DNA of 64,000 nt from an uncultured Gammaproteobacteria bacterium (GCA_963797555.1 CAWCPV010000006.1:32001-96000); one strand, 5' to 3'; shown: positions 10,858-40,213, counted from the stretch's first letter. Translations and numbers: made by a program. Notes: generated by a model from the letters alone, not told the origin.

Positions 10858-13836
10858 ATGGCACAGGACGACAGGGAAAGGGGCGGCCAGAAAAGGGCCT
10901 TCATCTCCAGCACCTCCATCGACCTGCCGGAGCACCGCAAGCAGGTGATCGAGGCCTGCCTGCGCATGGGCTACCATCCGGTGGGGATGGAGCACTGGCC
11001 CGCCCAGGATGCCGACGCCGAGACGGTGTGCCTGCGGGCGGTCGACCGGGCGGATCTGTTCATCGGCGTCTACGCCTTCCGTTACGGCTGGGTTCCGCCG
11101 GGACACGCGGTGTCCATCACCGAGCTGGAGTACCAGCGGGCGGTCGACAAGAAGAAGCCGCGGCTGCTGTTCTTCATGGACGAGGACTACCCGCTTCCCC
11201 CACGCCTGGTGGAGAAGGGGGAAGGCGGGAAGAAGCTGGAGGCGTTCAAGAAACGGGTCGGGACCGAGCGGGTGGGGAGCTTCTTCACCACCGAGAACGA
11301 CCTGCGCGGGCTGGTCGTCCAGGCCCTCGCCGCGCACCGCGAGACCGTCCCCCCGGAGCGGGAGCGCGCCGGCTCCCCCATCCCCGCAATCCCGCAGCCT
11401 TATGTCGCGCACCCCTATACCCTGCTCCAGTCCCGCCGCCTGGTGGGGCGCGATCGGGAGCTGAGTCTCCTCACCGACTGGGTGGCCAAGCCCATGAGCG
11501 AGGTATACGCGAGCCCGGTCCTCAACTTCATCGCCATCGGCGGGATGGGCAAGAGCGCGCTCACCTGGCACTTCTTCCAGGTCATCGCTCCCCAGGAGAT
11601 GCGCCCGCTCGCCGGGCGGCTGTGGTGGAGCTTCTACGAGCGCGACGCCGGCTTCGAGCGCTTCCTGCCCCACGCTCTGGCCTACTGCTCGGGCGAGCCC
11701 CTTGCGGAGGTGGAGCGGCTCGACCCCGAGACCCAGCAGGAGCGCCTGTGGCAGCTCCTCGATCAGCGGCCTTTCCTTCTGGTTCTGGATGGCCTCGAAC
11801 GCATCCTGGTGGCGTACAACCGCCTGGATGCCCCGCGCCTGCTCGACGACGAGTTGGACGAGGCCACCGTCAACCGCGTCGCCGACGCTGGCGGCCTGCC
11901 TCCGGGCAGCGGCGAGACCTACCTCGCCCGCCACCACCTGCGTGCCTGCACCGACCCGCGCGCCGGGCGCTTCCTGCAGCGGCTCACCCGCCTCCGCACC
12001 TCGCGCATCCTCGTCAGCAGCCGGCTCTACCCCGCCGAGATCCAAACCCGTACCGGTTCGCCTCTAGCCGGCAGCACCGTGGTCTTCCAGCAGGGGCTGG
12101 AGCCCGCCGACGCCTTGGCTCTCTGGCGGGAGCTGGGGGTGCGCGGGGCGCGCGACGAGCTGCTGCCCCTGTTCGAGAGCTTCGGCTACCACCCCCTTCT
12201 GCTCCAGGCCCTGGCCGGGGAGGTGGCGGACTTCCGTCCCGCGCCTGGCGACTTTGCCGCCTGGCGCGCGGCCCACCCCGCCTTCGACCCCGGCGCCCTG
12301 CCCCTCGCCCAGCGCCACCACCACATTCTGGAGCACGCCCTGGGAGGACTGGCCGAGGCCTCGCGCCGGGTGCTGTACACCCTGGCCGGCTTTCGCATGC
12401 CCACCGGCTACGCCACTCTGCGCGCCCTGCTGGTGGGGGAAGGGGCGCCCTGCGCCGACGAGGCGGCGCTCGACCGCACCCTCACCGAGCTGGAGGACCG
12501 GGGACTGGTGGGCTGGGAGCGGCGGAGCAACCGCTACGACCTCCATCCCATCGTCCGGGCTGTGATCTGGGCGGCCCTGCCCGAGGGCGACCGCCGCGCC
12601 GTGCTGGAGGAACTGCACGACTACTTCCGGGCCCAGCCCCTGGTGAAGGATTGGCGGAAGGAGGAGTCCCTCGCCGACCTGGAGCCGGCCATCGAGCTGT
12701 ACGACAAGCTCGTCGGCCTCGGCCGCTACCAGGAGGCATTCGAGCTGTTCCGCGACCGTCTCGATGACGCCACCCTCTACCGCCTGAGCGCCGCCCCCCG
12801 CCGGCTGGAGCTGCTGCGCGCGCTGTTCCCGGACGGGGAGGAGGCCCCGCCGCGCCTGGAGAAGGCTGAGGACCAGGGCTGGACCCTGAACGCTATGGCC
12901 CAGGCATATCAGTTCAGTGGCCAGCCGGGGGCTGCGGTGGGACTGTTCCGGCAGGGGGCGACCATCGCCGAGCGGGAAGGGAACAAGCGCAACCTCGGGG
13001 TCGGTCTCCGCAACGTCTCCGACGCGCAGCGGCTGAGCGGTGGACTCCACGGGGCGGAGCGGGCGGCGCGCGGGTCCCTGGTGCTGACGCGGCAGCCTGG
13101 GGAGGCATTCCGGGAGGCGGTGAGTCTCCAACGGCTCGGCACCGCCCTCGCCGCCCGGGGCGAGGGCGGTGCCGCCGCTCGGGCACTGATCCGTTCCAGC
13201 CGCCTTCAGGAAGCCCGGGATAATCGTCAGGGTGAGGGGGTGGTCGCCGCCTACCGCGCCGAGCTGGCGCTCTCCCAGGGCCGGGCCACCGAGGCCCGCG
13301 ACCTGGCCGAGCGCGCCCGGGCGCTGGCCGGGGTCTGGCGCCACGAGCATGACTTCATCCGCACCGCCCGCTTGCAGGGTGCCGCCGCCCTCCTGCTCGA
13401 CGACCTCGCCACCGCCGCCGAGCGTCTGCACCACGCCCTGCAGCGCGCCCGGACCGTGGAGCTGGCCGAGGAGGAGTTGCCCGTCCTCGTCGCCCTGGCC
13501 GAGCTGCACCGCCGGTGCGGCGAGCCCCAGATCGCCCGCGAGCTGCTGGAGCAGGTCTGGGAGCCCGCCGAGCGGGGCCCCTATCCCCTGTTCCACGCCG
13601 ACGCCCTGGTCGTGTTGGCCCAGATCGAGCGCGATGCCGGCAATACGCCGGGCGCCATCGCCGCCGCCACACGCGCCTTCCAACTCGCCTGGTGCGATGG
13701 CCCTCCCTACGCCTATCACTGGGGCCTGGAGGCCGCCCGCGCCCATCTGAAGGCCCTCGGTGCTCCCGAGCCCGAGCTGCCGCCCTTCGACCCGACCGCC
13801 CACGAGCCCATGCCGGAGGTAGAGATAGAGCCCTGA
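10858..13836 (+). CDS. NLR-like STAND NTPase: DUF4062 effector - P-loop NTPase - TPR repeats
   Basis: AFISSTSIDL..RYG..SITELEY (DUF4062); Walker A AIGGMGKS; Walker B LLVLDGLE; HPLLL; YDLHPIVR; Ala/Arg-rich helical repeats. Confidence 0.85.
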   Translation: MAQDDRERGGQKRAFISSTSIDLPEHRKQVIEACLRMGYHPVGMEHWPAQDADAETVCLRAVDRADLFIGVYAFRYGWVPPGHAVSITELEYQRAVDKKKPRLLFFMDEDYPLPPRLVEKGEGGKKLEAFKKRVGTERVGSFFTTENDLRGLVVQALAAHRETVPPERERAGSPIPAIPQPYVAHPYTLLQSRRLVGRDRELSLLTDWVAKPMSEVYASPVLNFIAIGGMGKSALTWHFFQVIAPQEMRPLAGRLWWSFYERDAGFERFLPHALAYCSGEPLAEVERLDPETQQERLWQLLDQRPFLLVLDGLERILVAYNRLDAPRLLDDELDEATVNRVADAGGLPPGSGETYLARHHLRACTDPRAGRFLQRLTRLRTSRILVSSRLYPAEIQTRTGSPLAGSTVVFQQGLEPADALALWRELGVRGARDELLPLFESFGYHPLLLQALAGEVADFRPAPGDFAAWRAAHPAFDPGALPLAQRHHHILEHALGGLAEASRRVLYTLAGFRMPTGYATLRALLVGEGAPCADEAALDRTLTELEDRGLVGWERRSNRYDLHPIVRAVIWAALPEGDRRAVLEELHDYFRAQPLVKDWRKEESLADLEPAIELYDKLVGLGRYQEAFELFRDRLDDATLYRLSAAPRRLELLRALFPDGEEAPPRLEKAEDQGWTLNAMAQAYQFSGQPGAAVGLFRQGATIAEREGNKRNLGVGLRNVSDAQRLSGGLHGAERAARGSLVLTRQPGEAFREAVSLQRLGTALAARGEGGAAARALIRSSRLQEARDNRQGEGVVAAYRAELALSQGRATEARDLAERARALAGVWRHEHDFIRTARLQGAAALLLDDLATAAERLHHALQRARTVELAEEELPVLVALAELHRRCGEPQIARELLEQVWEPAERGPYPLFHADALVVLAQIERDAGNTPGAIAAATRAFQLAWCDGPPYAYHWGLEAARAHLKALGAPEPELPPFDPTAHEPMPEVEIEP

Positions 13837-14005
13837 ACAGCCCCTCGGGACCCGCGGAGCGCACGTGGCTGGCCCCGCCCTGCCCACCGCCCCTCCCCTC
13901 GGGTAGGAGAGGATTCATCCGCGACCTTGCAAGCCTCGGCGAGCTTGGACGGTCGCAGACCCATACGGATTCACAACCAGGCTGCGCCCCACAAGGCGTA
14001 GCCAT

Positions 14006-14080
14006 GTAGGTCGGGTTAGCGCAGCGTAACCCGACATCTCCCAACGTCGGGTTACGGCCTTGGGGCCTAACCCGACCTAC
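14006..14080. repeat. REPIN: inverted pair of GTAG-family REP palindromes
   Basis: GTAGGTCGGGTTAGCGCAGCGTAACCCGACA (14006-14036) and inverted CGTCGGGTTACGGCC..GGCCTAACCCGACCTAC (14045-14080); same family as the REPs flanking the RAYT at 35.4-36.0 kb. Confidence 0.9.
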
Positions 14081-14202
14081 CGTCTTGACGACACCCGCAA
14101 GCGAGCGGGATTTTTCGGGTGTCTTCGGCGCATTTTGACGCTAAATGCCTTGCAGCTTGAAACGATCTCGCGGGCTATACTCGCCCCGAGGGCCGGGCGC
14201 GC

Positions 14203-16908
14203 GTGACCACGATCTATCTCTCCTCCACCTACCGGGACCTGCAGGACCATCGTCGCGCCGTGTTCGACGCGCTGCGCCAGTCCGGCTACGCGGTCATCGC
14301 CATGGAGGACTATGTCGCCCGCGACGACCGGCCGGCGCCAGCGTGTCTCGCCGACGTGGAGCGCTGCAACGTCTACGTGGGGCTGTTCGCCTTCCGCTAC
14401 GGCTACTGCCCGCCGGCGGAGCACGGCAACCCCGATGGCCTGTCCATCACCGAGCTGGAGTTCCGCCGCGCCGACGCCAATCCGCGGGTCCACTGTCTGA
14501 CCTTCCTGCTGGACGAGAAGGCACCGTGGCCTCCCGACCAGATGGACGCCGTCACCGGTGAGAACGAAGGCGGAAAGCGCATCAAGGCGCTGCGCGAGTA
14601 CCTTGGCCGGGAGAAGATGGCGAGCTTCTTCGCCGCGCCCCAGGAGCTGGCCAGCAAGGTCCAGTCCGCGATCACCAAGCTCCTCGCCGGTGAGAGATCG
14701 GTGCCCAGTCCCGGCGAAGACCGGCAAGCGCCGGTCACCTGGGATGTCGATGAGCTGGGCTCACCCTATCCGGGCCTGATGCACTTCACCCCGCGTTACG
14801 CCCCTGTCTACTTCGGCCGGGAGGCCAAGGTGCGCGAGGTGCTGGACCGGCTGCACCTGCCGGCGGGGCGGTTCGTCATCGTCAGCGGCGACTCGGGCAC
14901 GGGCAAGTCCTCGCTGGTGGACGCCGGAGTGCTCCCGCGGCTCGCGGCCGGGGCCTTGCCGGGGGGTGTCGCGGCCGAAACGGTACGCATCGTGCCGAGC
15001 CAGGGGACCGACCCCTTCGACGCCCTCCTTCGCGGCCTGCACACTCAGGCTGAGGAGGCGGGCCTCGACCCGTTCACGACGGCCCGGACGCTGGCCCGGC
15101 GCCCGGCCGACCTGAGCCCGACGCTGAGCCAAATCATCGAACGGGGTCTGACGCGCGACGCCCTGGTCCTGTTCTTGGACCAGATGGAGGAGCTGTTCGC
15201 GGGCACCGACCGCGCGGCACTGGAGGTCAACTCCGCCGGGCCGTTCCTCGCCGGCCTTTACCGCACCGCCCAGAACGGCAGGCTCTGGGTGATCGCCACC
15301 ATCCGCAGCGACTGGCTGCATCGCTGCTACGCCCACCCGGATATGCTCGCCGTGCTGCGCGGCCCCGGCCATTACCCCTTGGGACAGGTGTTTCCCCACA
15401 CCATGCACGACATGATCGTGCGGCCCGCCCACTGTGCCGGCCTGCAGGTGTCCGAGTCCCTCGCCAGCCGGCTCATCGCGGATGCCGGGGCCGAGCCGGG
15501 CAGCCTCCCCCCGCTCGCCTTCGTGCTGCAGCGGCTGTTCGAGCTGCGCCGGGACGATGCCTTGAGCGAGGACGTGTACCTGCGGGACCTGGGCGGACTG
15601 GAGGGAGCGCTTTCCGGCCATGCGGCCGAGGCGGAGGCGGCAATGGGCCAGGACCTCGGCCCGCAAGCGATCGAGGATAAACTGCCGCAGGTCTTCGAGT
15701 CGCTGGTCCGGGTGAGCGTCCAGGGCCTGCCGACTCGCCGCCGTGCCAAGCTCTCCGCCATCCCGGGCGACGTGCGCCCGGTGATCGAGCACCTATTGCG
15801 GGCCCGGCTGTTGACGGCGGAGGGCGAGGGCGCGGAGGCCCTGGTGTCCGTGGCCCACGGGCGCCTGTTCGATGCCTGGCCGAGCCTCGCCCGCTGGGTC
15901 GCGGCCCACCAGGACGACCTGCGCCTGCTGCGCCAGGGGGAGCTGGACGCCGCGGAGTGGGCGCGGCAAGGCTATGACCTGGTCCACCTCTGGCACCCGA
16001 AGCGCTTGAAGCGTCTGCAGCGGGTCATCGATGCCCTGCCGCCCGACCGGGCTGACCCCGAGGTGCGCGAATTTGCCTGGCCCCAGACGCGGATGCTCCA
16101 GCGGGTGGTCGCAGGTGCCATGAGCCACGACCACGAGGAGCGGCGCACGGTAGGGACCTACCTCGCCGAGCTGGGCGACCCGCGACCCGGGGTCGGCGTG
16201 GGTTCCGACGGCAACCCCGACATCGACTGGGTGCCCATCGCTGGCGGCAAGGTGGTCCTGGAGGAGAAGGCGGGTCAGGCCAATGTCGAACCCTTCGAGC
16301 TGGCCCGCTATCCCGTCACCAACGCTCAGTTTCATGCCTTCACAGCCGCCGAGGATGTCTACCGCGACCCCCGCTGGTGGCAGAACATGCCGGATGGCGC
16401 GAGCGACGGACCCGCCGCATCCCGCTGGCCCGAGACGAGCCACCCGCGGGTGGAGGTCTCCTGGTACGAGGCGGTAGCCTTCTGTCGCTGGCTGTCCCAC
16501 CGGCTCGGGTTCGAGGTGCGCCTGCCCACGGAGTTCGAGTGGCAGCAGGCAGCGACGGGCGGTGATCCCCAAAACGTCTACCCGTGGGGCGGGGAGTGGG
16601 ACGCCGCGCGCTGCAACAGCGCCGAGAGCGGCCTCAACCGCACCACCGCAGTTGGGCTCTATCCTGCCGGGGCGAGCGCTCAGCGCGTACTTGACCTGGC
16701 GGGGAACATCTGGGAATGGTGCCTGAACAAGTACGACGAACCGACTGAGCCGATGGGGTCCCCTGAGGACCGGGGGGCGTTGCGCGGCGGTTCGTGGAAC
16801 TTCAACTCCGACTACTGTCGCGCCGCCTCCCGCACGTCCGTGCACCAGGACTTCCGCAACGACAACATCGCGTTTCGTGTGGTTCGTCCCGTATCTTCAG
16901 ATCACTGA
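14203..16908 (+). CDS. NLR-like DGR target 1: DUF4062 - STAND NTPase (nSTAND1-like) - FGE-sulfatase/CLec domain with C-terminal VR
   Basis: IYLSSTYRDL..SITELEF; SPYPGL..YFGRE; GDSGTGKSS; LFLDQMEELF; TIRSD; YPVTNAQF, RLPTEFEWQ, DLAGNIWEW, RGGSW..FRVV. Confidence 0.9.
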   Translation: MTTIYLSSTYRDLQDHRRAVFDALRQSGYAVIAMEDYVARDDRPAPACLADVERCNVYVGLFAFRYGYCPPAEHGNPDGLSITELEFRRADANPRVHCLTFLLDEKAPWPPDQMDAVTGENEGGKRIKALREYLGREKMASFFAAPQELASKVQSAITKLLAGERSVPSPGEDRQAPVTWDVDELGSPYPGLMHFTPRYAPVYFGREAKVREVLDRLHLPAGRFVIVSGDSGTGKSSLVDAGVLPRLAAGALPGGVAAETVRIVPSQGTDPFDALLRGLHTQAEEAGLDPFTTARTLARRPADLSPTLSQIIERGLTRDALVLFLDQMEELFAGTDRAALEVNSAGPFLAGLYRTAQNGRLWVIATIRSDWLHRCYAHPDMLAVLRGPGHYPLGQVFPHTMHDMIVRPAHCAGLQVSESLASRLIADAGAEPGSLPPLAFVLQRLFELRRDDALSEDVYLRDLGGLEGALSGHAAEAEAAMGQDLGPQAIEDKLPQVFESLVRVSVQGLPTRRRAKLSAIPGDVRPVIEHLLRARLLTAEGEGAEALVSVAHGRLFDAWPSLARWVAAHQDDLRLLRQGELDAAEWARQGYDLVHLWHPKRLKRLQRVIDALPPDRADPEVREFAWPQTRMLQRVVAGAMSHDHEERRTVGTYLAELGDPRPGVGVGSDGNPDIDWVPIAGGKVVLEEKAGQANVEPFELARYPVTNAQFHAFTAAEDVYRDPRWWQNMPDGASDGPAASRWPETSHPRVEVSWYEAVAFCRWLSHRLGFEVRLPTEFEWQQAATGGDPQNVYPWGGEWDAARCNSAESGLNRTTAVGLYPAGASAQRVLDLAGNIWEWCLNKYDEPTEPMGSPEDRGALRGGSWNFNSDYCRAASRTSVHQDFRNDNIAFRVVRPVSSDH
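16780..16908 (+). repeat. DGR variable region VR1 (+IMH) of target 1
   Basis: 16798-16890 aligns ungapped to 17059-17151: 17 mismatches in 93 nt, 10 opposite TR adenines. Confidence 0.85.
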
Positions 16909-17058
16909 TCACTGAGATGCGCGCGGAGCGCCGACATCGCCGATCCGGTCGCCCGTGGAACGGCGGGCGGTGCGTGGCGGCTCGCGGACCGTTTCCTCCG
17001 GACCGAAACGGGCCGCACGTAGTGCGCCCGAATGGGGCACGCCAGGATGGCGTGCATC

Positions 17059-17151
17059 AACATCGACTCCGACAACTGTCGCGCCGCCAACCGCAACAAC
17101 AACCACCCGGACGACCGCAACGACAACATCCGGTTTCGTGTGGTTCGTCCC
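17059..17151 (+). ncRNA. DGR template repeat TR1 (degenerate)
   Basis: AAC-rich copy of VR1 (gccAACcgcAACAACAACcac..AACgacAAC), outside any credible gene, followed by a structured spacer. Confidence 0.8.
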
Positions 17152-17329
17152 ACATCCTGCCCGCTTCCAGGCGCGGCTCCGGCGGCGTGGGGCCGGGCCC
17201 CGCGGGGGCACCACCCTCCCGCAACGCCGGTCGAGCACGCTTGGCCGGCCGAGGCGGAAAGGGCTAGATGGCGCAGGTCGATCCGGTCCGCACCGGGGCA
17301 CATCCCTCCGGTCGGGCGCATACCAAACC

Positions 17330-17364
17330 AGGGCGCATCCTGGAGGCGACTCCCGATGCGCCCT
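17330..17364 (+). other. Long hairpin at the 3' end of the TR1 spacer
   Basis: AGGGCGCATC/GATGCGCCCT outer stem, GGAG-GCGA-CTCC inner stem with a GNRA loop. Confidence 0.6.
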
Positions 17365-17555
17365 ACCTTCCATCCGCCTCGACGCGCCGGCGCCAACCGC
17401 CGAGCAGCCGCCCGATCTCCGCGGTGATCCGGCTCACGTGCTCGTACTGCCCGTCCTTCAGCCACGCCCAGCGGTTGATGAGACGCAGGTAGACCCGCAG
17501 CGATTGCAGCGCCACGTCGGCGCGCTGCAGGGCGCGCGCCCGGGCGAAGCGTGCC
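17363..17555 (-). pseudogene. avd: avd (DGR accessory protein), 3' half only
   Basis: LQRADVALQSLRVYLRL..LKDGQYEHVSRITAEIGRLLGGW, homologous to the C-terminus of the intact Avd at 30360-30758; no N-terminus. Confidence 0.85.
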
Positions 17556-17559
17556 CTAG

Positions 17560-17927
17560 TCGAGCGGCTCGCTGCCGTGCGGCTCACCCTGCACGCGGAC
17601 AGCGCCCAGGTCCTGCCGGTCGCGTGCGGCATTCCCTGGCTCGGCTTTATCGTGTACCCGGACCATCGGCGCGTGAAGCGGCGCAAGGTGGTGGCCGCGA
17701 GCCGCCGGCTCACCGCCCGCTACGACGCCTGGCGCCGGGGCGACATCACCTTCGCCGAACTGGACGCCAGCGTGCAGGGCTGCATCGGCCACGTGCGCTA
17801 CGCCGATTCCTGGGGACTACGGGAACATGTGCTGGCCCGGTTCGACCTGTCCGAGCGATGGCCGTGGAAGCCCAGGACCCGGAAACAACCGCGAAGGCGC
17901 GCTGCGCGCGCCTTCAGAAACCAGTGA
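17560..17927 (+). pseudogene. DGR reverse transcriptase, C-terminal (thumb) fragment
   Basis: RLTLH..GIPWLGFIVYPDHRRVKRRKV..DASVQGCIGHVRYADSWGLR parallels the C-terminus of the RT at 29282-30373; YxDD palm absent. Confidence 0.85.
17893..17915 (-). other. Perfect 10-bp hairpin/cruciform with GCA loop downstream of VR2 (DGR target recognition element)
   Basis: GAAGGCGCGC-GCA-GCGCGCCTTC, 12 nt after the target 2 stop. Confidence 0.75.
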
Positions 17928-20777
17928 TCAGCGATCTGGAGATGGGGGACGAACCACCCGAAAACCGTAGTAGTCGTTGCGGGAATCCGGGCCGCCCCCG
18001 CTGCGGCGGGCGGCACGACAGAGGTAGCGAAGGGAGCACCAGCAACCGCCGCGCAGCGCCCGCAACTCGTCGCCCTTTGTGCCCGTGCGTTCGGGGTTTT
18101 GGTATTCGTTCAGGCACCACTCCCAGACGTTTCCCGCCAGATCGAACACGCCGTGGGGGCTCGCCCCGCCGGGGTAGAGCCCGACGGCGGTGGTGCGGTC
18201 GGGGCCGCCCTCGGCGCTGTTGCAGCGCGCGGCATTCCACTCCCGGCCCCAGGGGTAAACGTTGTTCGGGTCGCCGCCCGTCGCCGCCTTCTCCCACTCG
18301 ACCTCCGTCGGCAGCCGAACCTCGAAGCCGAGCCGATCCGAGAGCCAGCGGCAGAAGGCCACCGCCTCGTACCAGGCAACCGTCTCGCGCGGATGGTTGC
18401 CCTCCGGCCACCTAGGCTCCCAGGCCGCATCGAATCGCTGCGCAAGGCCCTTCCACCACGCGGGATTCGCAAAGCCCGACGGGTCGTCCAGGAAGCAACG
18501 GAACTGGCGATTCGTGACGGGGTAGCGGGCGATGTGGAAAGCGGGCAGGGTGCGCCGCTCGCCCTCTTGGTAGCGGAACTCGCCAGCGGGGACGTCGCCC
18601 CAGTCGATGTCCGGGAGCCACAGCCCAGTCTTCGGGTCCCGGGCGACGCCAACGCCGGGGCGGGTGTCCAGCATCTCCCCCTCCACCTCCACCGCGAGAG
18701 CCTGGCCAATGGCAGCGCGGGCAGCAGGGTCGGGGTCCCGATCGAGGTCGCTGAGCCGCGGGGTCCAGGCGGCCCGCACCCGCTCGAGGGTCGCGGCCGG
18801 AACCCTGGCCCCGCTGCGGGCGAGGCACTGGCCGGCCACCCAGGGCTGGGCGTCGGCCAGCCAGTCGATGATGAGGGTGCAGTCCTCCGGGTAGATGCCC
18901 GCGAGGAGCACCGTCGCCTCCTCCCAGCCGCTGCGCTGCCACCAGCGCTGCACCGGCCAGAGGTCGGCCGCGGCCAGCTCGCGGGCTTGGATCTTGGCCT
19001 GCATCCCCAGGGCGACGAAATACTCCTGCAGGAGCTGGTGGCCGAAGCGGACGTACCCGCCCGTGGGCTCGATCAGGCTCGCCCTGACCGCGAGGCGGTA
19101 CAGCTCCGGCTGCAAGAGCAGGGCGGCATCCCGCGCCGACACCGAGGTCACCGCCTCCGCGCGCCCCGTGTCCTCGCCGTAGCGCTGCATGCTCCAGGCC
19201 ATGCGCCCGGCGGCATCGAGCAGCCGCTCACCGTCAGGGGTCACTACCAGCGACCGGCCGGCCGGGTCCCGCCGACCGAGCCCCTCGCGCTCGATGAGGG
19301 TGTCGACGAAGTAACGGAACAGCACGCCGCGGTTGGCCGGAACCGTCCCGCTGCGCCGATACACCCCGAGCAGCATGACCAGCATGTAGGGGTTGCGCGC
19401 GAGGCGCATGAGGTTGCGGGGCGAGGCCACCTGCTCCGCCCAGACCCGGTAGTCGTGCCCGCTGGTCTTGTGGTAGACATCCGGGCTATCGCGCGGGACC
19501 TCCCGCGCCGAGAAGAACAGCTCCAGGTCGGCACCGGCCGCCTGCCACCTATCCCAGACGGAGCGCACCGCCTCGCCGCCGGCGACAGCCCAGAAGAATG
19601 CCTCGGCGGCCTCGGCGCCGCGCCGGGCACGCTCGGCAGCAGGCAGGTCTTCGGGCTGGGCGGCCGTGAGATAACGCTCGGCGAAGTCGGCGATGCCCGC
19701 AATGGTCAGGGGCTGGATGCGGATGGTGTCGAGCGCGAGGGCCAGGTCCTCACCGTAGTCGTCCTGACGGCAGGTGGCCAGCACCGGAATCGCTTGCGGG
19801 CGGGTCCTGTTCAGCCAGGTCTTTATCCGGCCCGCCTTGTCGGCCCAGGCGCCGGTGGGCAGCTCGTTCAAGCCGTCGAGGAGCAACACGGCGCGGCGGT
19901 CGGTCATCAGGGGGGGAAGGTCGGGCTGCAGCGGCTCGACCTGGCCGGCAAGAAAGTCTTCGAAGGGCGTTGCGTCAGTCCAGTCCCCGAGCTTCACGAG
20001 CAGCGGCAGCGGGGCCCGACCGTCCTCCCGCGCCCGGGCGGCGAGATCCGCGGCGAGCCGCCACAGGGTCGTGGTCTTGCCAGCCCCGGGCGGGCCGAGC
20101 AGCACGGCGCGCGTGATGTCGGGCGTCGGGAAAGCTTCGGTGATGTCCTCGAAACGCCGGGTCTGCTTCTGGCTGCCCGCGCTTCCCACGGCCTCGAAGG
20201 GGATGTGCTGCAGCTCCGGCCGGGCCACCAGCATGGGCAGCGGCGCCTTGTCGTCGCCGCCCAGCTCGGCGGTGCCGGCGAGCGGCGTGTACAGGTCCAC
20301 GTGCTGAAGCTCCCGCAGCTCCAAGCGCCGCAGGTAAGCCAGCTCCCGCTCGCGCGGCTGCTGGGCCGCGAGCGGCGGGGCGGGCACCGGGGCCGGACCT
20401 GGGGCCGGCAGACTCGCCAGCAGCCGGTCCAGGGCACCCTGGTAGTCGCGGAAGAGATCCAGCGCCTGGAGTCGGGCCAGGTCCGCGGGCAGCGGACAGT
20501 CCTCGACCCGCACCGGGAAGATGGGCCGGTCGCGCCGCCGCGCCATGCGCCGCTCCCGCGCCACCCAGGGCCGGGCGTTGGCGGTCGCGCTCACCAGCAC
20601 CACGAACGCGTAGGCCGCAGCGATGGCGTCTGCGATGCGCTGCTCCCACTCGGCTCCCGGCTGGATGTCGCTCACGTCGATCCAGCAGCGGTGGCCGGCC
20701 TCCTCCAGGTCACGCCCAATCTCGCGAGCAAGATCGGCGTTCTCCCGCGCATAGCTGATGAAGATGACGCTGTCCAC
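17928..20777 (-). CDS. NLR-like DGR target 2: TIR - NACHT - FGE-sulfatase/CLec domain with C-terminal VR
   Basis: IFISYAREN..WID..IQPG..WVARE (TIR_2); LGPPGAGKTT; LLLDGLNE; TCR; RNPYML; FGHQLLQEYF; YPVTNRQF, RLPTEVEWEKAA, DLAGNVWEW, RGGCW..GFRVV; GTG start chosen (ORF open from 20801). Confidence 0.9.
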   Translation of the reverse strand: MDSVIFISYARENADLAREIGRDLEEAGHRCWIDVSDIQPGAEWEQRIADAIAAAYAFVVLVSATANARPWVARERRMARRRDRPIFPVRVEDCPLPADLARLQALDLFRDYQGALDRLLASLPAPGPAPVPAPPLAAQQPRERELAYLRRLELRELQHVDLYTPLAGTAELGGDDKAPLPMLVARPELQHIPFEAVGSAGSQKQTRRFEDITEAFPTPDITRAVLLGPPGAGKTTTLWRLAADLAARAREDGRAPLPLLVKLGDWTDATPFEDFLAGQVEPLQPDLPPLMTDRRAVLLLDGLNELPTGAWADKAGRIKTWLNRTRPQAIPVLATCRQDDYGEDLALALDTIRIQPLTIAGIADFAERYLTAAQPEDLPAAERARRGAEAAEAFFWAVAGGEAVRSVWDRWQAAGADLELFFSAREVPRDSPDVYHKTSGHDYRVWAEQVASPRNLMRLARNPYMLVMLLGVYRRSGTVPANRGVLFRYFVDTLIEREGLGRRDPAGRSLVVTPDGERLLDAAGRMAWSMQRYGEDTGRAEAVTSVSARDAALLLQPELYRLAVRASLIEPTGGYVRFGHQLLQEYFVALGMQAKIQARELAAADLWPVQRWWQRSGWEEATVLLAGIYPEDCTLIIDWLADAQPWVAGQCLARSGARVPAATLERVRAAWTPRLSDLDRDPDPAARAAIGQALAVEVEGEMLDTRPGVGVARDPKTGLWLPDIDWGDVPAGEFRYQEGERRTLPAFHIARYPVTNRQFRCFLDDPSGFANPAWWKGLAQRFDAAWEPRWPEGNHPRETVAWYEAVAFCRWLSDRLGFEVRLPTEVEWEKAATGGDPNNVYPWGREWNAARCNSAEGGPDRTTAVGLYPGGASPHGVFDLAGNVWEWCLNEYQNPERTGTKGDELRALRGGCWCSLRYLCRAARRSGGGPDSRNDYYGFRVVRPPSPDR
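17946..18060 (-). repeat. DGR variable region VR2 of target 2
   Basis: Same scaffold as VR1/TR1 (tgt cgN gcc gcc..cgc aac gac..ttt cgN gtg gtt cgt ccc) with NNC/NNT codons at TR AAC positions; over 75 nt, 11 mismatches at TR1 adenines and 9 elsewhere. Confidence 0.75.
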
Positions 20778-20884
20778 AGAAAAAGACCGGGTTGGAGCCA
20801 AGAAATCGGTTCATTGTAGAGATATCTACCGTGCTCTGGCCCCGTCTTTCTCTCGGCCAACTGGCGCTAAATTTCTGGCTACTG

Positions 20885-21060: not shown

Positions 21061-21280
21061 ACCGACAGGGATTGGGCGGGCCGGAGCGCCACGGAGAGGC
21101 GTTGCGCCCGCAGGTCCGAAAAACGGGAAGGCGCGCTGCGCGCCTCCAGCAATCAGCAATTAGTTTAATGATCGGAGGCCAGGCGCCATGCGGACCACGC
21201 CGAGCGCTAACCCGGTCTCGGCAGCAGACGTCGCAATCTTCAACGTCCTTGTCGCTGACCGGCAGCTTCGGCACCGGCCA

Positions 21281-26815: not shown

Positions 26816-28903
26816 TCAGGGGGCCGCTGGCGGCGGCTCCTGCTCGGGAATCGAGTCCAACTGGGAGAGCCACGCCGCCGCCTCGCCGTCGCTGGGCGCC
26901 CGGTAATCGCCGCGCGGTGACAGCGAGCCGCCCGACCCGACCTTGGGCGCGTTGGGCATGGCGCTGCGCTTGAACTGGCTGAGCTGGAAGAAGCGCTCGA
27001 GGAAAACCCCGAGCCACCGGCGTATTTCGGCGATGGTGTACTCGCGGCGCTCGGACTCCGGGATATCCGGCCACACGCCGCGCGCCGCATCGTGCCAGGC
27101 GCACCAGGCGAGGAAAGCGACCTTCGGCGGGGCGTAGCCGAAGCGCAGGATTTGGTAGAGATTGAAGTCCTGCAGCTCGTAAGGACCGACCACCGCTTCG
27201 GTGCGCTGATTCGGCTGCCCGCCCTCCCCGTCCGGCTCCGCGGGGACCAGCTCGGGACTGATCTCGGTCTCCAGCACCTCCTCCAGCACCGCACTCACCT
27301 CGGGGCCGAGCTGACGCGTCTTCGCTACCCAGCGGATCAGGTACTGGATCAGCGTCTTCGGGACGCTGGCGTTCACGCCGTAGTGGGCCATCTGGTCGCC
27401 CACGCCGTAGGTGCACCAGCCCAGGGCCAGCTCGCTGAGATCGCTGGTCCCGACCACCAGGCCGCCGTGGCGGTTCGCCAGCCGGAACAGCAGGCTGGTG
27501 CGTGCGCCCGCCTGCACGTTCTCGAAGGTCACGTCGTACACCGGCTCACCCCGCGCGTAGGGGTGATCGATGTCGCGCAGCATCTGCAGGCAGCCGGGGC
27601 GGATGTCCACCTCCCGCGCGGGGCACCCCAGGGCCGCGATGAGGCGCCGCGCCTGCGCCAGGGTGCGGGCGCTGGTCGCGAAGCCCGGCAGGGTATACGC
27701 AAGCACATGGCTGCGCGGCAGCCCCAGCACGTCCATGGCGTGGCCGCACACCAGCAGCGCCTGGGTCGAGTCGAGCCCCCCCGAGACGCCGATGACCACC
27801 TTGTCCACTTGCGCGGCGTGCAGGCGCTTCACCAGCCCCTGCACCTGGATCTCGTACACCTCCCGGCAGCGCTCGTCGCGCCGGTTCGGATCGCTCGGAA
27901 CATAGGGGAAACGCTCGTAAGCCCGCTCCGGCAGCAGCACGCCCCGGCTGGGAAGGTCGAGCGGCACCGGCACCGTACGATAGTCCTGCAGGTCCTGCCG
28001 GTGGCGGTAGCGTGCCTGGGCGAAGGTGCCCTGGCGCATCCTGTCCTGAACGAGACGCTCCAGGTCGACGTCCCCGGTGACGAGCTGGGCGCTATAGCGG
28101 AACCGCTCCGACTCCGCGATCCGCGTCCCGTTCTCGTAGATCAGGGCGTGCCCGTCCCAGGCCAGCTCCGTGGTCGACTCCCCGCTCCCGGCCGCGCAGT
28201 ACACGTAGGCCGCGAGGCAGCGCCCCGACTGGTTCTCCACGAGCTGGCGGCGGTAGTCCGCCTTGCCCACGGTGATGTTCGACGCGGACAGGTTCACGAG
28301 CACCGTGGCGCCCGCCAGCGCCGCATAGCTCGAAGGCGGGATGGGCACCCAGAGGTCTTCGCAGATCTCCACCGAGAAGGTCAGCAGCGGCTGACTCTCG
28401 GCCGCGAACAGCAGGCGGTTGCCGAAGGGCACGTCGCGGCTCCCGAGCAGGTCCACGGTGCTCCTGCCGGCCACGTCCGCCGGCGTGAACTGGCGCAGCT
28501 CGTAGAACTCCCGGTAGTTGGGGAGGTAGGTCTTGGGGACGATCCCCAGCAGCTTGCCGCGGTAAAGCACCGCCGCGCAGTTGTAGAGCAGCCCGTCCAC
28601 TTGGAGCGGCAGCCCCACTACCGCGACCACGGGCAGCGCATGGGAGGCGTGCAGGATACGCGACAGAGCGTCCACGCAGCCGTCCAGCAGCGCCTGCTGG
28701 TGGAACAGGTCCTCGCAGGAATAGGCCGACAGCCCCAATTCCGGGAACACGACCAGCGCCGCCCGCCGCGCCGCCGCCCGTTCCAGCAGCGCGATGGTCT
28801 GGGCGGCGTTGAACGCCGGGTCCGCCACCTTCACCTCGGGCGACGCGGCCGCGACCCGCACCATACGGTGGCGGTAAAGGTTGAAGAAGTCTTCGGTTTC
28901 CAT
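26816..28903 (-). CDS. nadE: Glutamine-dependent NAD+ synthetase
   Basis: Nitrilase domain ([23 protein letters not shown]) plus [20 protein letters not shown]; start at METEDFF. Confidence 0.95.
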
Positions 28904-29146
28904 GGCCTGTCGCGGAGCTTCGAGCCAGACCACTCTAGTGGAGCGAGCGCTGCCGCCGCAAGGGCGCTGAATCCTCGGTCCGGTAGCCGGCTGGAGGGCG
29001 ACCCCGATTCCCTGTGTAAGACATCCCGGCGGCTGTCGCTCCCGCCGGGAGCCAGGACAGCCGCCGGGCACCGCTCTCATCATGACCGGCGTTGGACGCG
29101 CGAGCGCACTCCTGGCCCGTCCTTGAACGGGCCGGCTCCCGCCTCG

Positions 29147-29272
29147 CAGCGTACTGGCAACACGAAACCCCAGGTTGTTGTTCCGATCGGAGACGGTATT
29201 CCTGTTGCGGTTGGCGGAGCGCACGTTCTGCGGGGTATTGTTCCAACTGCCGCCGCGGTTCACGCGCCGCCC
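29147..29272 (-). ncRNA. DGR template repeat TR2
   Basis: 126-nt ungapped match to 30808-30933 with 21 mismatches, 18 at TR adenines; GGCCCGT/ACGGGCC hairpin at 29114-29133 just 3' of it. Confidence 0.95.
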
Positions 29273-29281
29273 TGACGCCGG

Positions 29282-30373
29282 TCAGGCTCCCGCGGGCCGG
29301 TCGGACCCGGCAGGTGCCGGGTCGAACCAGCCGCCGCGAAAGATGGCGTGGCGCAGCCGCCGCGTGTGCCCATGCGCGGCGTGCGCGACCCAGGACTGCA
29401 CCCGTTGGCGCACCTCCTTCTCGGTGACGGTCCCCTGCCCCCAGCGGTCGCGCAGCCCCCGCAAACGGTTGCGGAAGCGCCGGACATTGGATTCCGGCAG
29501 GCGCCGCCGCCCGTTTGCGTGCAGCTCGAAGCCGAGGAACGTCGCCGGCTCGGCGGTCGCCAGAACCAGGGTCTTGTCCGGGTGCAGCGACAGGCGGCGC
29601 CGGGCGAGATATTCGGCGATGCGCTCCCGCCATGCCGCGAGCTGCGCCGGGTCGTCGTGGAACAGTGCCAGATCGTCCACGTAGCGGACATAGCCGGGCG
29701 CGCGCAGGACTTCCTTGACGAAGTGGTCCAGGCCATCCAGGTAGACGTTGGCGAAGAGCTGGCTGGTCAGGTTGCCAATGGGCAGCCCGCGGCGGCGCTC
29801 GAAGGGTGTGAACAGGCCGTCACCCGGGTAGTAGAGATGGACCGGCTCCTGGGGATTGGAGCCGTCGACGATCAGGTCCAGCAAGCGCAAGGCGCGCGCG
29901 CAGGCGATGCGCCGGCGCAGATCCCGCTTCAGGATGGCGTGGTCGATCGCCGGAAAGTACCGGTAGATGTCGGCGCGCAGCACGTATCGGTGGCGGTCGC
30001 GGTAATGCTCGTAGCGGGCAACGGCGCGGTGGGTGCCCTTGCCCCGGCGGTTGGCGAAGCTGTCCGGGATGAAGCCGCGCTCGAACAGCGGCTCCACCAC
30101 GGCGCAAAGGGCATGATGCACCACCCGGTCGCGAAACGGCGCGGCCGACACCCGCCGCGGCTTGGGGTCGCGCACCTCCATCACCGTGTAGCCGCCGGGC
30201 CTCCACGAGCCGTCGCGCAGCGCCCGCTCCAGGACCAACAGGTTCGTCTCCAGTCCCGCCAGGAAGGCGGCGACGCCGGCCTTGGCGCGCTTGCCGCGCG
30301 CCGCCCGCTGTGCCGCCGCGTGCAGGGCGTGAAAGTTGGCGATGCCCTCGAACAGATGATCAGCCCTGCGCAC
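29282..30373 (-). CDS. DGR reverse transcriptase
   Basis: FRDRVVHHA, GKGTH, DIYRYFPAIDH, GLPIGNLTSQ (DGR-type SQ motif), YVRYVDD, FLGF. Confidence 0.97.
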   Translation of the reverse strand: MRRADHLFEGIANFHALHAAAQRAARGKRAKAGVAAFLAGLETNLLVLERALRDGSWRPGGYTVMEVRDPKPRRVSAAPFRDRVVHHALCAVVEPLFERGFIPDSFANRRGKGTHRAVARYEHYRDRHRYVLRADIYRYFPAIDHAILKRDLRRRIACARALRLLDLIVDGSNPQEPVHLYYPGDGLFTPFERRRGLPIGNLTSQLFANVYLDGLDHFVKEVLRAPGYVRYVDDLALFHDDPAQLAAWRERIAEYLARRRLSLHPDKTLVLATAEPATFLGFELHANGRRRLPESNVRRFRNRLRGLRDRWGQGTVTEKEVRQRVQSWVAHAAHGHTRRLRHAIFRGGWFDPAPAGSDRPAGA

Positions 30374-30758
30374 CGCGGTCGGCCTTCATCCAGCCCCCCA
30401 CCAGCCGCCCCACCTCGTCCACGCTGCGGGCGACGTGCTCGTAACGGCGCAGATCGAGGTAGCCGAGATCCTTCGATAGCCGAAACAGAAAACGCAGCTT
30501 CTCCAGCCGCAGGTTCACCCGGCGCAGGATCGGCGCCGCCTCGCGCGTGTAGGTGGCCTCGATCAGCCCTTCCAGCAAGTCCAGCGCCGTGCCCTGGATG
30601 CGGTCGCCCAGCAGGAAGCGCTGGCTGCGCGGGAACTTCTCCACCGTCGGGATCATCCACAGCAGAAACTGGTAGGCCCGCTCCAACGCCGGGCCGTGGC
30701 GCCGCGCCGGGTCGGGCTGCCGACCCGGCGCGGCGCGCGGTGGCTGGGTGCTCGCCAC
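30360..30758 (-). CDS. avd: DGR accessory variability determinant Avd
   Basis: KFPRSQRFLLGDRI..LEKLRFLFRL..YEH..EVGRLVGGW four-helix bundle; overlaps the RT start. Confidence 0.93.
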   Translation of the reverse strand: MASTQPPRAAPGRQPDPARRHGPALERAYQFLLWMIPTVEKFPRSQRFLLGDRIQGTALDLLEGLIEATYTREAAPILRRVNLRLEKLRFLFRLSKDLGYLDLRRYEHVARSVDEVGRLVGGWMKADRGAQG

Positions 30759-30792
30759 GACGGGGTAAAGGGGTAAAGAAGCTAAGCCCTAA

Positions 30793-30811
30793 GCTGCCGT
30801 TTCACGGCAGC
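30793..30811 (-). other. 8-bp hairpin with GAA loop overlapping the target stop (DGR cis element)
   Basis: GCTGCCGT-GAA-ACGGCAGC; absent after TR2. Confidence 0.8.
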
Positions 30812-31968
30812 GTCCTGGCAACACGAAACCCCGGGGCGCCGTTCCGAGCGGAGACGGGATACCAGCCGCGGCTGGCGGAGCGCACGAACAGCGGGGAAGA
30901 GTCCCAACTGCCGCCGCGGTTAACGCGCCGCCCGCAGTCGCCCCGGTGGCTGGCGCTGCCGTCGGCCGGCGCGCCCGCGTAGCTCTCGTCGTAGCAGTCC
31001 TCGGTCCATTCCCAGACGTTTCCCAGCATGTCGTAGAGCCCGAATGCGTTCGGCCGGAAGGAGCCCACCGGGGCGGTGTCGGGGTAGCCGTCGTCGCAGG
31101 CGAAGGCCGGCCAAGGGTACCGCGACGAATATTTGGTCTCGCCGGACCAATCATAGACGTTGGCGAACTGACAGGCGCGGTCCGTCGACGTGCCCCAGAA
31201 CCGGGGCTTCTGCGATCCGGCGCGCGCCGCGTACTCCCACTCCGCCTCGCTCGGCAGACGGTATCCCTTGCCGGTCTTCTCCGACAGCCACTCGGTGAAG
31301 CCCACCGCCTCCTCCCAGGTGACGTTGATGACCGGCTGGCGACCGCGGCCCCAGCCCTCGTCTCCCACCTGCCCACAGTCCCCGGCACGCGCGCACGCGT
31401 CCCACTCGTTGAAGGTCACCTCGTACTTGCCCAGCGCAAAGGGCTTCGCCAAGGTGACCTCGTGGGCGGGCCCCTCGTTGTTGTCGCGCCCCGCCTCGCT
31501 GGGCGGCGAGCCCATCACGAAGGACCCGGCCGGGATGACCACCATCGCCGGGCAAACGTCGCAGTCCTGGAACTCGGTGCCGGGCTTAGGGTAACGCGGC
31601 GCGGCGCTGGCGGTGCCCTTCCCGGACAGCTCGGCGAGGCGGCGCTTCGCCTGGGGTGCCACCGGGCTGTTCGGGTCCGCCTTGAGCGAGGCATCGAAGC
31701 GCGCGCGGGCCTGGTCCTTCTTGCCCAGCGCCAGATAGGTCTCGCCCAGGTAGTAGTTCGCCGGGGCATTGTCGGGCTCGACCTTGAGCCCTTGCTCGAA
31801 CTTGGCCGCCGCTGCGTCGAGCTTGCCCGCCTTCCTCAGCTCGAAGGCGTCGAAGAACAATTGCTGCGCGCCCCCTTGCTGCGCATGGCCATTGCCCGAC
31901 CCGACAGCGGTAGAAAAAAGCACCAACCACACCATGAGCCCAAACGGTTTCAGCAGAACCTTCCCCAT
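30802..31968 (-). CDS. DGR target 3: signal peptide - TPR - FGE-sulfatase/CLec domain
   Basis: Hydrophobic N-terminus, TPRs (ANYYLGETYLALG), FQDCDVCPAMVVIPAGSFVMGS, RLPSEAEWEYAARAG, NAFGLYDMLGNVWEW. Confidence 0.93.
   Translation of the reverse strand: MGKVLLKPFGLMVWLVLFSTAVGSGNGHAQQGGAQQLFFDAFELRKAGKLDAAAAKFEQGLKVEPDNAPANYYLGETYLALGKKDQARARFDASLKADPNSPVAPQAKRRLAELSGKGTASAAPRYPKPGTEFQDCDVCPAMVVIPAGSFVMGSPPSEAGRDNNEGPAHEVTLAKPFALGKYEVTFNEWDACARAGDCGQVGDEGWGRGRQPVINVTWEEAVGFTEWLSEKTGKGYRLPSEAEWEYAARAGSQKPRFWGTSTDRACQFANVYDWSGETKYSSRYPWPAFACDDGYPDTAPVGSFRPNAFGLYDMLGNVWEWTEDCYDESYAGAPADGSASHRGDCGRRVNRGGSWDSSPLFVRSASRGWYPVSARNGAPGFRVARTLP
30808..30933 (-). repeat. DGR variable region VR3
   Basis: Encodes [42 protein letters not shown] versus TR2 [42 protein letters not shown]. 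Confidence 0.95.
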
Positions 31969-32191
31969 CTTTGCCTCCCTTGCGGCGTGGCCGCTTACCA
32001 AAACGAGTATTAATAGTACAGGCTTACTGGGGCACGGTTTTCCCCACCGGGACGGCGGTCAGGACTCGGCCGAGACGGCCCCGGAAAGATACGAGCCAAA
32101 GAGTCGATGTCGTTAAACAAGCCGCTACAGCTTCGATGGTCCAGACAGCGGGGCGCAGGATCGAAGCCCATGCCTGGAGGAGGGAGCGTCC

Positions 32192-33825: not shown

Positions 33826-34182
33826 TCAAGCCGCATCCCGGATCTCCGCGTGAATAACGATCTCATCGAAAGGCGCAGCGAGTTTCCCGTCCTCGTCCCT
33901 TTCCAGCAGCCCAAGCTCGACCAGCTCCTTGACGTCGGTGTGGACGTTCTTGTAGTCGCGGCTAAGCCCCTGCGCGAGCTGGCGGACGTTCAGAGTCTGA
34001 TGAGCGGCCACGTGGCGCAACAGCTCCAGCCGTTTTTCGGTGATAGTGGAAAACAGCTCCCGCAGGCTCCCGAACGCGAGGCGCGGGGTGGACGACTCTC
34101 CAGCCTCCAATCGCCGCCAGGCCTCGGCGAAGGCATTCAGGCCGGCCTGCGGCCTCATCACCATGATCTCGATCCGGTTCAT
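33826..34182 (-). CDS. HTH protein, putative antitoxin/regulator (HVO_A0114-like)
   Basis: TEKRLELLR..VRQLAQGLSRDYKNVHTDVKELVELGL..PFDEI; ATGA-coupled to the upstream gene. Confidence 0.8.
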   Translation of the reverse strand: MNRIEIMVMRPQAGLNAFAEAWRRLEAGESSTPRLAFGSLRELFSTITEKRLELLRHVAAHQTLNVRQLAQGLSRDYKNVHTDVKELVELGLLERDEDGKLAAPFDEIVIHAEIRDAA

Positions 34183-34469
34183 TCCCACCTCCAGCCCGCC
34201 AGGCGCACGCAATCGGCGCGGAAGTCGGCGATCAACCTGTGCAGCGAATCGAACCGGTAAGGGTGTTCCCCGTCGGCGTCATGTCGATGGTCACCCTTGC
34301 CGCTCTCGTTGTCGTACCGAACGAGACACTTGCCGGCGCGACCGCAATACAGCCGGTATTTGAGCCCATGAGCCCGCTCCGGGGTAACTCCCGGTAAGGC
34401 CCAGATGACCATCTCCACGAACACATCCGCCTGCCGGGCCTTGTACCGGAAGATCTGCCGTGCCCGCAT
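34179..34469 (-). CDS. DUF6516 family protein, putative toxin
   Basis: HGLKYRL..VRYDNESGKGDHRH..YRF..LIADF. Confidence 0.8.
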   Translation of the reverse strand: MRARQIFRYKARQADVFVEMVIWALPGVTPERAHGLKYRLYCGRAGKCLVRYDNESGKGDHRHDADGEHPYRFDSLHRLIADFRADCVRLAGWRWE

Positions 34470-40205: not shown

Positions 40206-40213
40206 CGCGAAAA

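Follow-up and report, generated by a model that had tools for sequence, protein, structure and literature searches.

A probable degenerate diversity-generating retroelement with two STAND-C-type-lectin targets beside an Avs-like sensor gene in an uncultured gammaproteobacterium

What holds together three neighboring genes that resemble NLR-type receptors and pairwise have effector or sensor families in common? The genes, here called g1, g2, and g3, are three long, codon-biased open reading frames (ORFs) that fill positions 10858-20777 of a high-GC stretch of 64,000 nucleotides (nt) from an uncultured Gammaproteobacteria bacterium (GCA_963797555.1, CAWCPV010000006.1:32001-96000; hereafter, the window). 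A first-pass annotation had described them as a modular innate-immunity island built by domain shuffling. We favor another account, to which we assign a probability of about 70%: two separate things lie side by side, a stand-alone sensor gene, g1, and a degenerate diversity-generating retroelement (DGR) that comprises g2 and g3.

Pfam searches, judged against the family cut-offs, recovered within these 10 kb the three builds that had been named at first pass. g1 (10858..13836, plus strand, 992 amino acids [aa]) is a DUF4062(NIR)-STAND-TPR protein with an Avs-like build, g2 (14203..16908, plus strand, 901 aa) is DUF4062(NIR)-nSTAND1-FGE/CLec (C-type lectin), and g3 (17928..20777, minus strand, 949 aa) is TIR_2-NACHT-FGE/CLec and convergent with g2. 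The four families that the first-pass annotation had expected (DUF4062, TIR_2, NACHT, and FGE-sulfatase) were thus all found, although the strand of g3 and the DGR remains had been overlooked. g2 scored 77.9 bits with DUF4062 (cut-off 24.7), 269.6 bits with nSTAND1, and 140.6 bits with FGE-sulfatase; the values for g3 were 103 bits with TIR_2 (cut-off 28), 49.1 bits with NACHT (cut-off 26.7), and 147.9 bits with FGE-sulfatase. The start of g3 is likely the GTG at 20777, within an ORF that spans 17928-20801, because the product then has the 949 aa of the database copy P0125. The supposed kinships held as well: the heads of g1 and g2 are 34% identical over 190 aa, and the FGE regions of g2 and g3 are 53% identical over 270 aa. 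Both FGE regions match 2y3c, the Treponema DGR variable protein TvpA (E 3.4e-10 for g2), while the NCBIfam enzyme models EgtB, SenA, PvdO, and GldK all fall far under their cut-offs for these regions. Pfam found no vWA, MoxR, or adaptor (EAD) part in g2 or g3.

The 1-kb gap between g2 and g3 holds a template repeat (TR2), a structured spacer RNA, a partial avd gene, and a partial reverse transcriptase (RT) gene. TR2 (17059..17156, plus strand), found by a repeat search, is 98 nt long and AAC-rich and has a TR-type CCCACATC end. Its two counterparts are variable repeats (VRs) at the 3' ends of the receptor genes: VR2 in g2 (16798..16890, plus strand) is a direct repeat of TR2 with 81% identity, and VR3 in g3 (17946..18038, minus strand) is an inverted repeat with 74% identity. 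Each VR forms the final ~31 codons of its FGE-sulfatase domain, and the catalytic Cys pair of FGE, at the position that we take it to occupy, would fall inside the DGR-written VR. In the TR2 core all 24 of 24 adenines stand at codon positions 1 or 2, and AAC accounts for 8 of 31 codons. Mismatches are enriched at template adenines, with 10 of 17 there for VR2 (Fisher P = 1.4e-3) and 17 of 32 for VR3 (Fisher P = 2.5e-5). We conclude that g2 and g3 are probably two convergent targets of one DGR, now degenerate, and that they have a sensor family in common because both are targets of that element. An origin of VR2 and VR3 from a different template was considered and rejected: both carry constant bases specific to TR2 and not those of the corresponding template in an intact DGR that this genome has on contig C4; the C4 template is 80% identical to TR2.

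The ends of the repeats differ in the manner expected of template and target. A VR-type 3' flank with an end resembling the initiation of mutagenic homing (IMH) site and a GATCACTGATCACTG element (16891..16914, plus strand) spans the stop codon of g2; this flank is common to VR2, VR3, and both C4 VRs and is absent from the TRs. VRs end in CCC[C/G][C/T]ATC followed by a GATC.CTGATCACTG element, whereas the TRs of the window, of C4, and of the related loci L037 and L052 end in CCCACATC. The contrast of CCCCCATC in VRs with CCCACATC in TRs recurs in L037 and L052 and is conserved across phyla, and the two kinds of end may act as IMH and IMH*, respectively. The DGR of Bordetella phage BPP-1 presumably likewise has VR and TR 3' ends that differ (IMH) and a GC-rich hairpin downstream of its VR. 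A GC-rich, terminator-like hairpin is found just after the stop codon of g3 and the VR3 flank (17892..17916, minus strand). It is nearly identical to a second hairpin upstream of g3 (21127-21147, minus strand), both with a GGCGCGC...GCGCGCC core and T-rich tails, and a similar one follows the VR at C4:520.65 kb; these hairpins may serve in termination, in DGR target recognition, or in both.

Directly downstream of TR2 is a structured spacer RNA module (17157..17364, plus strand). A consensus fold of six spacer copies from at least three phyla (window 17157-17364, L014:5641-5914, L022:2685-2953, L037:8487-8695, L041:9262-9489, and L052:11316-11538) has four helices and 41 pairs, and compensatory changes occur at 16 of the pairs. 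In this DGR lineage the module lies directly 3' of the TR, with avd in antisense just beyond. In the window, that position is taken by the C-terminal half of avd (17363..17545, minus strand), which scores 37.4 bits with bAvd (cut-off 40) over profile positions 54-106 of 107, matches residues 82-123 of the window's other Avd (Avd1), and is 70% identical to the C4 avd. It is followed by the C-terminal quarter of an RT (17556..17927, plus strand; ~95-124 aa), which matches residues 252-345 of the 363 of the window's other RT (RT1) and is 57-60% identical in aa to the C4 RT. No Pfam match (RVT_1) was obtained for this remnant, and the catalytic domain is missing at the locus.

The intact C4 DGR, which holds the closest relatives of both remnants, has the same layout as the window: target 1 with its VR, TR, antisense avd, RT, and a convergent target 2 with its VR. 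Head-to-head avd and RT genes also occur at L037, L041, L045, and L052 (Acidobacteria, Accumulibacter, and Zoogloea loci). By blastn, window 17080-17501 corresponds to C4 376986-376514 and window 17602-17833 to C4 375448-375216, and these collinear flanks enclose 101 nt in the window versus 1,066 nt in C4. Since collinearity holds on both sides of so unequal a gap, a single deletion of ~965 nt, with an approximate junction at 17546..17555, appears to have removed the 5' parts of the two head-to-head genes.

The template itself also seems to have been damaged. At 16963..16988 (plus strand) lies a probable displaced 5' piece of TR2, in which 21 of 26 bases equal the constant 5' edge of VR2 (16773-16798); a match of 20/26 to that edge is reached at just three places in the window. 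Between this piece and TR2 we place an insertion of ~70 nt (16989..17058, plus strand), at a point where no break interrupts the TRs of C4, L037, and L052. No other copy of 16989-17058 was found in the genome; two short hairpin-forming segments can be seen in it by eye. TR2 also encodes Arg where the VRs and the other TRs have the Gly of a conserved GFRV motif.

The adenine bias has decayed as well. Whereas only 10 of 17 and 17 of 32 mismatches in the window's pair of VRs are at adenines, the adenine share in the RT-bearing DGRs of this genome is 23/24 and 18/19 for C4 and 12/12, 16/17, 13/13, 14/14, and 12/12 for the others; the complete second DGR within the window (29146-32001) has 18/21. 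Sites without a template adenine differ at 7/69 (VR2) and 15/69 (VR3), compared with 0 to 3 per ~100 sites in intact DGRs. Because of these non-adenine mismatches, the lost RT catalytic domain, the split TR2, and the Arg at the GFRV Gly, the element most likely stopped working some time ago, leaving the receptor genes intact and their sensor tips fixed, or frozen.

Several observations weigh against this account as a whole. The window spacer keeps 40 of the 41 consensus pairs, and neither the VR flanks nor the hairpin shows damage, so the template could still be used. Elsewhere in the genome, an enzyme-less TR-spacer-VR set (L022; C4:520100-524100) beside a DUF4062-NACHT-FGE gene that reads frameshifted has 17 of 17 TR-to-VR substitutions at adenines, plus one 1-nt indel, and genome-wide lists place no RT or Avd within 10 kb on either side of it. 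This pair suggests that its VR was recently written by an enzyme encoded elsewhere and makes service in trans plausible in this organism. The assembly, in 20 contigs and 84.6% complete, contains several apparently frameshifted paralogues, and error in fine detail is possible. PADLOC, one of the checks proposed at first pass, yielded nothing over cut-off beyond TIR-level matches, with no family for g1, a P-loop-level match only for g2, and a TIR-level match only for g3; likewise, no NCBIfam model passed its cut-off for g1, g2, or g3 (no family at all for g1). Finally, Doré 2024 (PMC10907252), in its discussion of STAND-CLec sensors, reports that functional data exist for none of them.

The intact spacer and the C4:520 kb pair would both fit a locus that is still alive, in which TR2 RNA is transcribed (e.g., by read-through from g2) and copied in trans by the C4 RT and Avd, giving low-rate diversification. 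VR2 and VR3 do keep the VR-type 3' flank of the active paralogues, and trans activity has been inferred in Thiohalocapsa (Doré 2024, PMC10907252, as described there). We nonetheless consider continued writing unlikely. Retrohoming would reset the non-adenine sites, yet these differ in both VRs, and the 5' part of TR2 is split and its GFRV Gly replaced. The window spacer carries 8 private changes at the 68 columns where the other five copies agree, versus 1 or 2 of ~62 in four of those five (L037 has 16/76), and the C4 RT itself reads frameshifted ~35 codons before its end. A still broader proposal, that one or two surviving RT/Avd pairs serve scattered enzyme-less templates such as TR2 and C4:520 kb in a genome-wide network, seems to us doubtful on the same material. 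If true, losing or acquiring the enzyme genes could switch NADase-headed sensors from diversifying to frozen and back, and a distributed hypermutation system would serve a bacterial receptor repertoire.

The state of the assembly raises a further alternative, namely, that the loss of the avd and RT halves is only apparent, an artefact, and that g2 and g3 enclose a complete DGR on the real chromosome. The fragmented assembly and its frameshifted genes would allow this, but the remnants are diverged from every paralogue, even the closest (avd 70%, RT 57-60% aa identity), so the junction cannot have arisen by collapsing one paralogue onto another. Decay is also present independently of the junction, in the non-adenine TR/VR mismatches and the split TR2. 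We regard an artefact as highly improbable. Two soil-metagenome runs of one study (0.05-0.06 of words each) gave a few exact pieces of 151-251 nt and left 16808-17275 uncovered. In a search of 40 genomes of the same class with g2, two had any match at E <= 1e-20, and no orthologous locus was found; the collection contained no relative at the level of genus or family. As for taxonomic markers, rpoB (PF00562) is missing from the assembly, and homologues of NadE, at ~74% identity, were spread over many phyla.

Returning to the degenerate DGR as the favored reading, the comparisons above draw on a genome rich in such elements. Intact DGR RTs are RT1 in the window (29282-30373) and those on C4, C14 (two), and C3. 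The four RT-bearing loci outside the window (C14:5.8-9.6 kb, C14:227.7-229.2 kb, C3:44.6-49.6 kb, and C4:374.9-380.2 kb) have clean, adenine-only TR/VR differences, and their targets include two caspase-FGE, two NACHT-FGE, a TIR-nSTAND1-FGE, and an nSTAND1-FGE protein. The frameshifts in several of these targets and in the C4 RT may be assembly errors.

Were the three genes nevertheless assembled from one another's modules by recent local shuffling, as the first-pass annotation supposed? The idea has some appeal. Effector (g1/g2) and sensor (g2/g3) families are common pairwise; the genome contains all four FGE-tailed combinations of TIR or DUF4062 with nSTAND1 or NACHT, and also nSTAND1-only, NACHT-only, and caspase versions; and the FGE cores of g2 and g3 are linked by a 309-nt inverted repeat of 82% identity. 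Yet the g2 DUF4062 domain is 53% identical to its C4 paralogue, versus 34-38% to g1, and the 77% identity between the g2 and g3 cores is nearly equalled by unrelated genomes (71-74%). All three architectures are widespread. g1 has 2,219 relatives at E <= 1e-10, and the best 120 are all full length and DUF4062 bearing, with 54-69% identity. Among the best 119 relatives of the g3 FGE region, 40 are TIR_2-NACHT (10 with PF19961), 11 are DUF4062-nSTAND1, and 3 are DUF4062-NACHT, the remainder having other heads or no named head.

Trees of the FGE domain, computed without the VR, argue in the same direction. The NTPase type, labelled on 96 rows, changes 3 or 4 times versus ~25 times in shuffles, and the head label, available for 61 rows, changes 6 or 7 times versus ~15. 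Two hints of a swap were pursued. The 82% inverted repeat and the rank of g2 as 9th of 119 in distance from g3 on the FGE-only tree pointed to an exchange between g2 and g3, by gene conversion or by a swap of sensors, which we rejected: unrelated genomes match the core equally, g2 falls to 95th of 119 when the upstream linker is added to the FGE domain, and an approximately unbiased (AU) test does not reject grouping of the g3 FGE region with its whole-protein orthologues (P = 0.70), with a log likelihood 12.3 higher when they are held together. Descent of the g3 FGE region from an nSTAND1 lineage, also hinted at by the FGE-only tree, did not survive the AU test. The trees and the AU test thus largely refute local shuffling, which we hold to be very improbable. 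Each of the three genes appears instead to belong to a widespread, pre-formed whole-gene lineage, and the modularity that the first-pass annotation had perceived, in what are indeed NLR-like STAND proteins with NADase-type heads, would be that of the families: an ancient swapping, mostly at the effector end.

The other component, g1, would stand apart from the DGR. A terminator-like hairpin after g1 (14094..14109, plus strand) suggests that g1 and g2 may be separate transcription units, although it comes from a consensus scan only, which gave 4 sites versus 2.8 expected. Pfam assigns to g1 DUF4062 (86.2 bits; residues 13-95; cut-off 24.7) and TPR_12 (36.8 bits), with TPR_MalT (35.9 bits) and AAA_16 (17.3 bits) below their cut-offs; between DUF4062 and TPR is a P-loop region in which no Pfam NTPase family exceeds its cut-off. 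Language-model neighbors of g1 are NB-ARC/nSTAND clusters, which we treat as a lead only. An AlphaFold2 model from an 18-row alignment had a mean pLDDT (predicted local distance difference test) of 67.9, with residues 200-600 mostly below 50 and strandless, and was not used. Judged by its parts, g1 appears to have the tripartite build of Avs proteins, with an effector, a STAND NTPase, and a C-terminal repeat sensor. No Avs chain was among its PDB matches in a profile search, and no curated Avs/AVAST model matched it. g3, for its part, appears to have the build of bNACHT proteins, a NACHT domain with Walker A and B motifs between effector and sensor; no NACHT defense model of PADLOC or NCBIfam passes for it (EruA scored 24.6 bits against a cut-off of 1,000).

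The residues on which function would depend are retained in all three genes, and the putative catalytic Glu that had been pointed out in each head is conserved among homologues. In the g1 family, E89, E91, Walker A (G228-S233), and Walker B (D311-E314) are invariant in 18/18 homologues. In the g2 family, E86, Walker A (G229-S237), and D326-E330 are invariant in 12/12, and E84, which aligns to g1 E89, is at least 90% conserved (12 homologues). In g3, the Glu of WVARE (E83), Walker A (G236-K242), and D309, all in P0004 numbering, are invariant in 23/23. This Glu aligns, at a marginal E of 0.02-0.05, with Glu 77 of the SPARTA TIR-APAZ chains, which we take to be catalytic. The head of g1 matches the solved KpSwz DUF4062 chain 10wc_A (E 2.5e-11; profile E 1.4e-17) and that of g2 matches 11gz (E 2e-6). 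E89, the first Glu of SITELE in g1, aligns to Glu 82 of chain 10wc_A, which would be E97 of KpSwz provided that the chain, like construct KpSwz16-C, starts with residue 16.

Two preprints (bioRxiv 10.64898/2026.05.01.722283 and 10.64898/2026.09.04.749371) identify DUF4062 as a TIR-like NADase used in phage defense and report the inactive mutants KpSwz E97A, TEP1 E1008A, and PsAvs2 E108Q. PsAvs2 is a DUF4062-STAND-TPR protein in which E108Q abolishes defense, the head Glu being required for both defense and NAD+ depletion (bioRxiv 10.64898/2026.09.04.749371, as described). g1 and g2 appear to keep the NADase-type Glu of DUF4062/NIR; NADase activity, oligomerization, a defense role, and the nature of the ligands are extrapolated from homologues and the literature.

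On these grounds we propose the following course of events. In g1, the TPR region would act as the sensor and the STAND NTPase as the switch, and the DUF4062/NIR head would hydrolyze NAD+ once the protein oligomerizes. In g2 and g3, the ligand-binding tip would be encoded by the ~31 codons that close the C-terminal FGE-fold (C-type-lectin-fold) domain; upon binding, the nSTAND1 or NACHT NTPase would oligomerize, and the clustered DUF4062 or TIR heads would deplete NAD+ and so halt a cell under infection or invasion. Formerly, error-prone reverse transcription of TR2, specific to adenines, would have rewritten these tips. The loss of ~965 nt would have ended this writing, after which TR2 and both VRs would have drifted at non-adenine sites and the 5' end of TR2 would have been split, so that the two receptors are now most likely germline fixed.

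The DGR-written STAND sensors might instead have no role against phages and work, in a social or multicellular bacterium, in the recognition of kin or self, in programmed cell death, or in the tuning of regulatory pathways. Kaur 2020 (PMC7159879) treats FGS/DGR systems broadly as conflict systems of multicellular prokaryotes, and a cyanobacterial study (PMC7517822) is reported to propose regulatory tuning. The relatives found here belong mostly to filamentous or floc-forming taxa (Anaerolineae, Accumulibacter, Zoogloea, and Nitrospira), and the immediate neighbors of the cluster are metabolic (molybdopterin oxidoreductase and ABC/ZnuA genes). Against this, heads of both types deplete NAD+ as abortive-infection effectors in the defense systems described as tested, and type I restriction-modification, GmrSD, and AbiEi genes lie in the same window, 18-30 kb away. 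A role other than phage defense seems to us quite unlikely.

The locus is of a kind already known: it matches the "degenerate" STAND-CLec DGR loci as these are described in Doré 2024 (PMC10907252), where clade 5D DGRs have two STAND-CLec targets with TIR or peptidase heads and where, in genomes with several DGRs, every class has a single complete locus, accompanied by "degenerate" ones. Like the clade 5D elements described there (Thiohalocapsa PB-PSB1 DGR 3 and DGR 6), it has two targets, in each of which an nSTAND1 or NACHT NTPase occupies the center and one CLec/FGE domain the C terminus. The clade 5D descriptions likewise include some TIR heads, several DGRs per genome, and degenerate loci in which the RT or accessory genes are missing or pseudogenized and service in trans is suspected. 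It differs from clade 5D as described in that one target has a DUF4062/NIR head, the targets in one cassette belong to different NTPase families (nSTAND1 and NACHT), and TR and VR show many non-adenine mismatches; the likeness is one of target build.

Other systems resemble single parts of the cluster. In the STAND/vWA-FGS systems of Kaur 2020 (PMC7159879), as presented there, the FGS domain is always C-terminal, TvpA-like, and subject to RT-dependent hypervariability; it is predicted to be a DGR-diversified module that binds invader molecules directly, and the TR is local or elsewhere in the genome. Those systems are, according to the same account, mainly vWA-MoxR ternary systems, unlike g2 and g3, which are without vWA, MoxR, and EAD. 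The described DGR of BPP-1 (mtd-avd-TR-brt; Kaur 2020, PMC7159879) also has its VR at the 3' end of a CLec-fold gene, and the template adenines of its TR/VR pair likewise fall at codon positions 1 and 2; the present locus, unlike it, is cellular, has an antisense avd between TR and RT and two convergent targets, and has a truncated RT and avd. g1 is likened by description to PsAvs2 (bioRxiv 10.64898/2026.09.04.749371), with which it has the three-part build and the equivalent head Glu in common; it differs in having no PADLOC match and an NTPase without a Pfam family above cut-off. The DUF4062 fold and its Glu are also found in KpSwz (Swarozyc) and human TEP1 (bioRxiv 10.64898/2026.05.01.722283; PDB 10wc and 11gz), and the human proteins described there likewise have DUF4062 beside a NACHT/STAND ATPase. 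KpSwz as described lacks both a STAND NTPase and a CLec sensor; an auxiliary domain of its own senses a phage portal.

Although it reveals no new kind of system, the locus has features of its own: two targets, one nSTAND1 and one NACHT, paired with a single template, a DUF4062-headed DGR target beside an Avs-like DUF4062 gene, and a deletion that is cleanly explained. DGR-written STAND-CLec proteins are the closest bacterial analogue of a diversifiable antigen receptor, and a single genome here supplies a comparison set, with an Avs-like gene, DUF4062- and TIR-headed receptors on one template, an explained inactivation, an intact paralogue, and an enzyme-less template that looks freshly used. 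It prompts three questions: whether DUF4062 heads act as NADases downstream of a CLec sensor, which ligands the frozen receptors bind, and whether one RT serves foreign templates.

The second DGR of the window, which is complete and of another lineage (29146-32001, minus strand), consists of a TPR+FGE target (30802-32001) with VR1 (30807-30933), a bAvd gene (30360-30758), the gene for RT1, and TR1 (29146-29272), which lies downstream of the RT; all are on the minus strand. The FGE domain of its target is 31-37% identical to those of g2 and g3. Immediately downstream of TR1 is a gene for a glutamine-dependent NAD+ synthase (26816-29100, minus strand), ~6-16 kb from the three NADase-headed genes, a proximity that is probably a coincidence; the long ORF call for this gene overlaps TR1, and its true start lies further in. 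Farther along, a small HVO_A0114/MarR-like gene (33826-34212, minus strand) and an ATP-dependent DNA ligase gene (36199-37815, plus strand) are found between the DGR and the restriction genes. The latter belong to a defense stretch (38088-50120) that encodes type I restriction HsdM (38088-40205) and HsdR (46590-50120) and, between them, AbiEi (40233-40922), GmrSD (41821-43719), and Fic (45430-46593).

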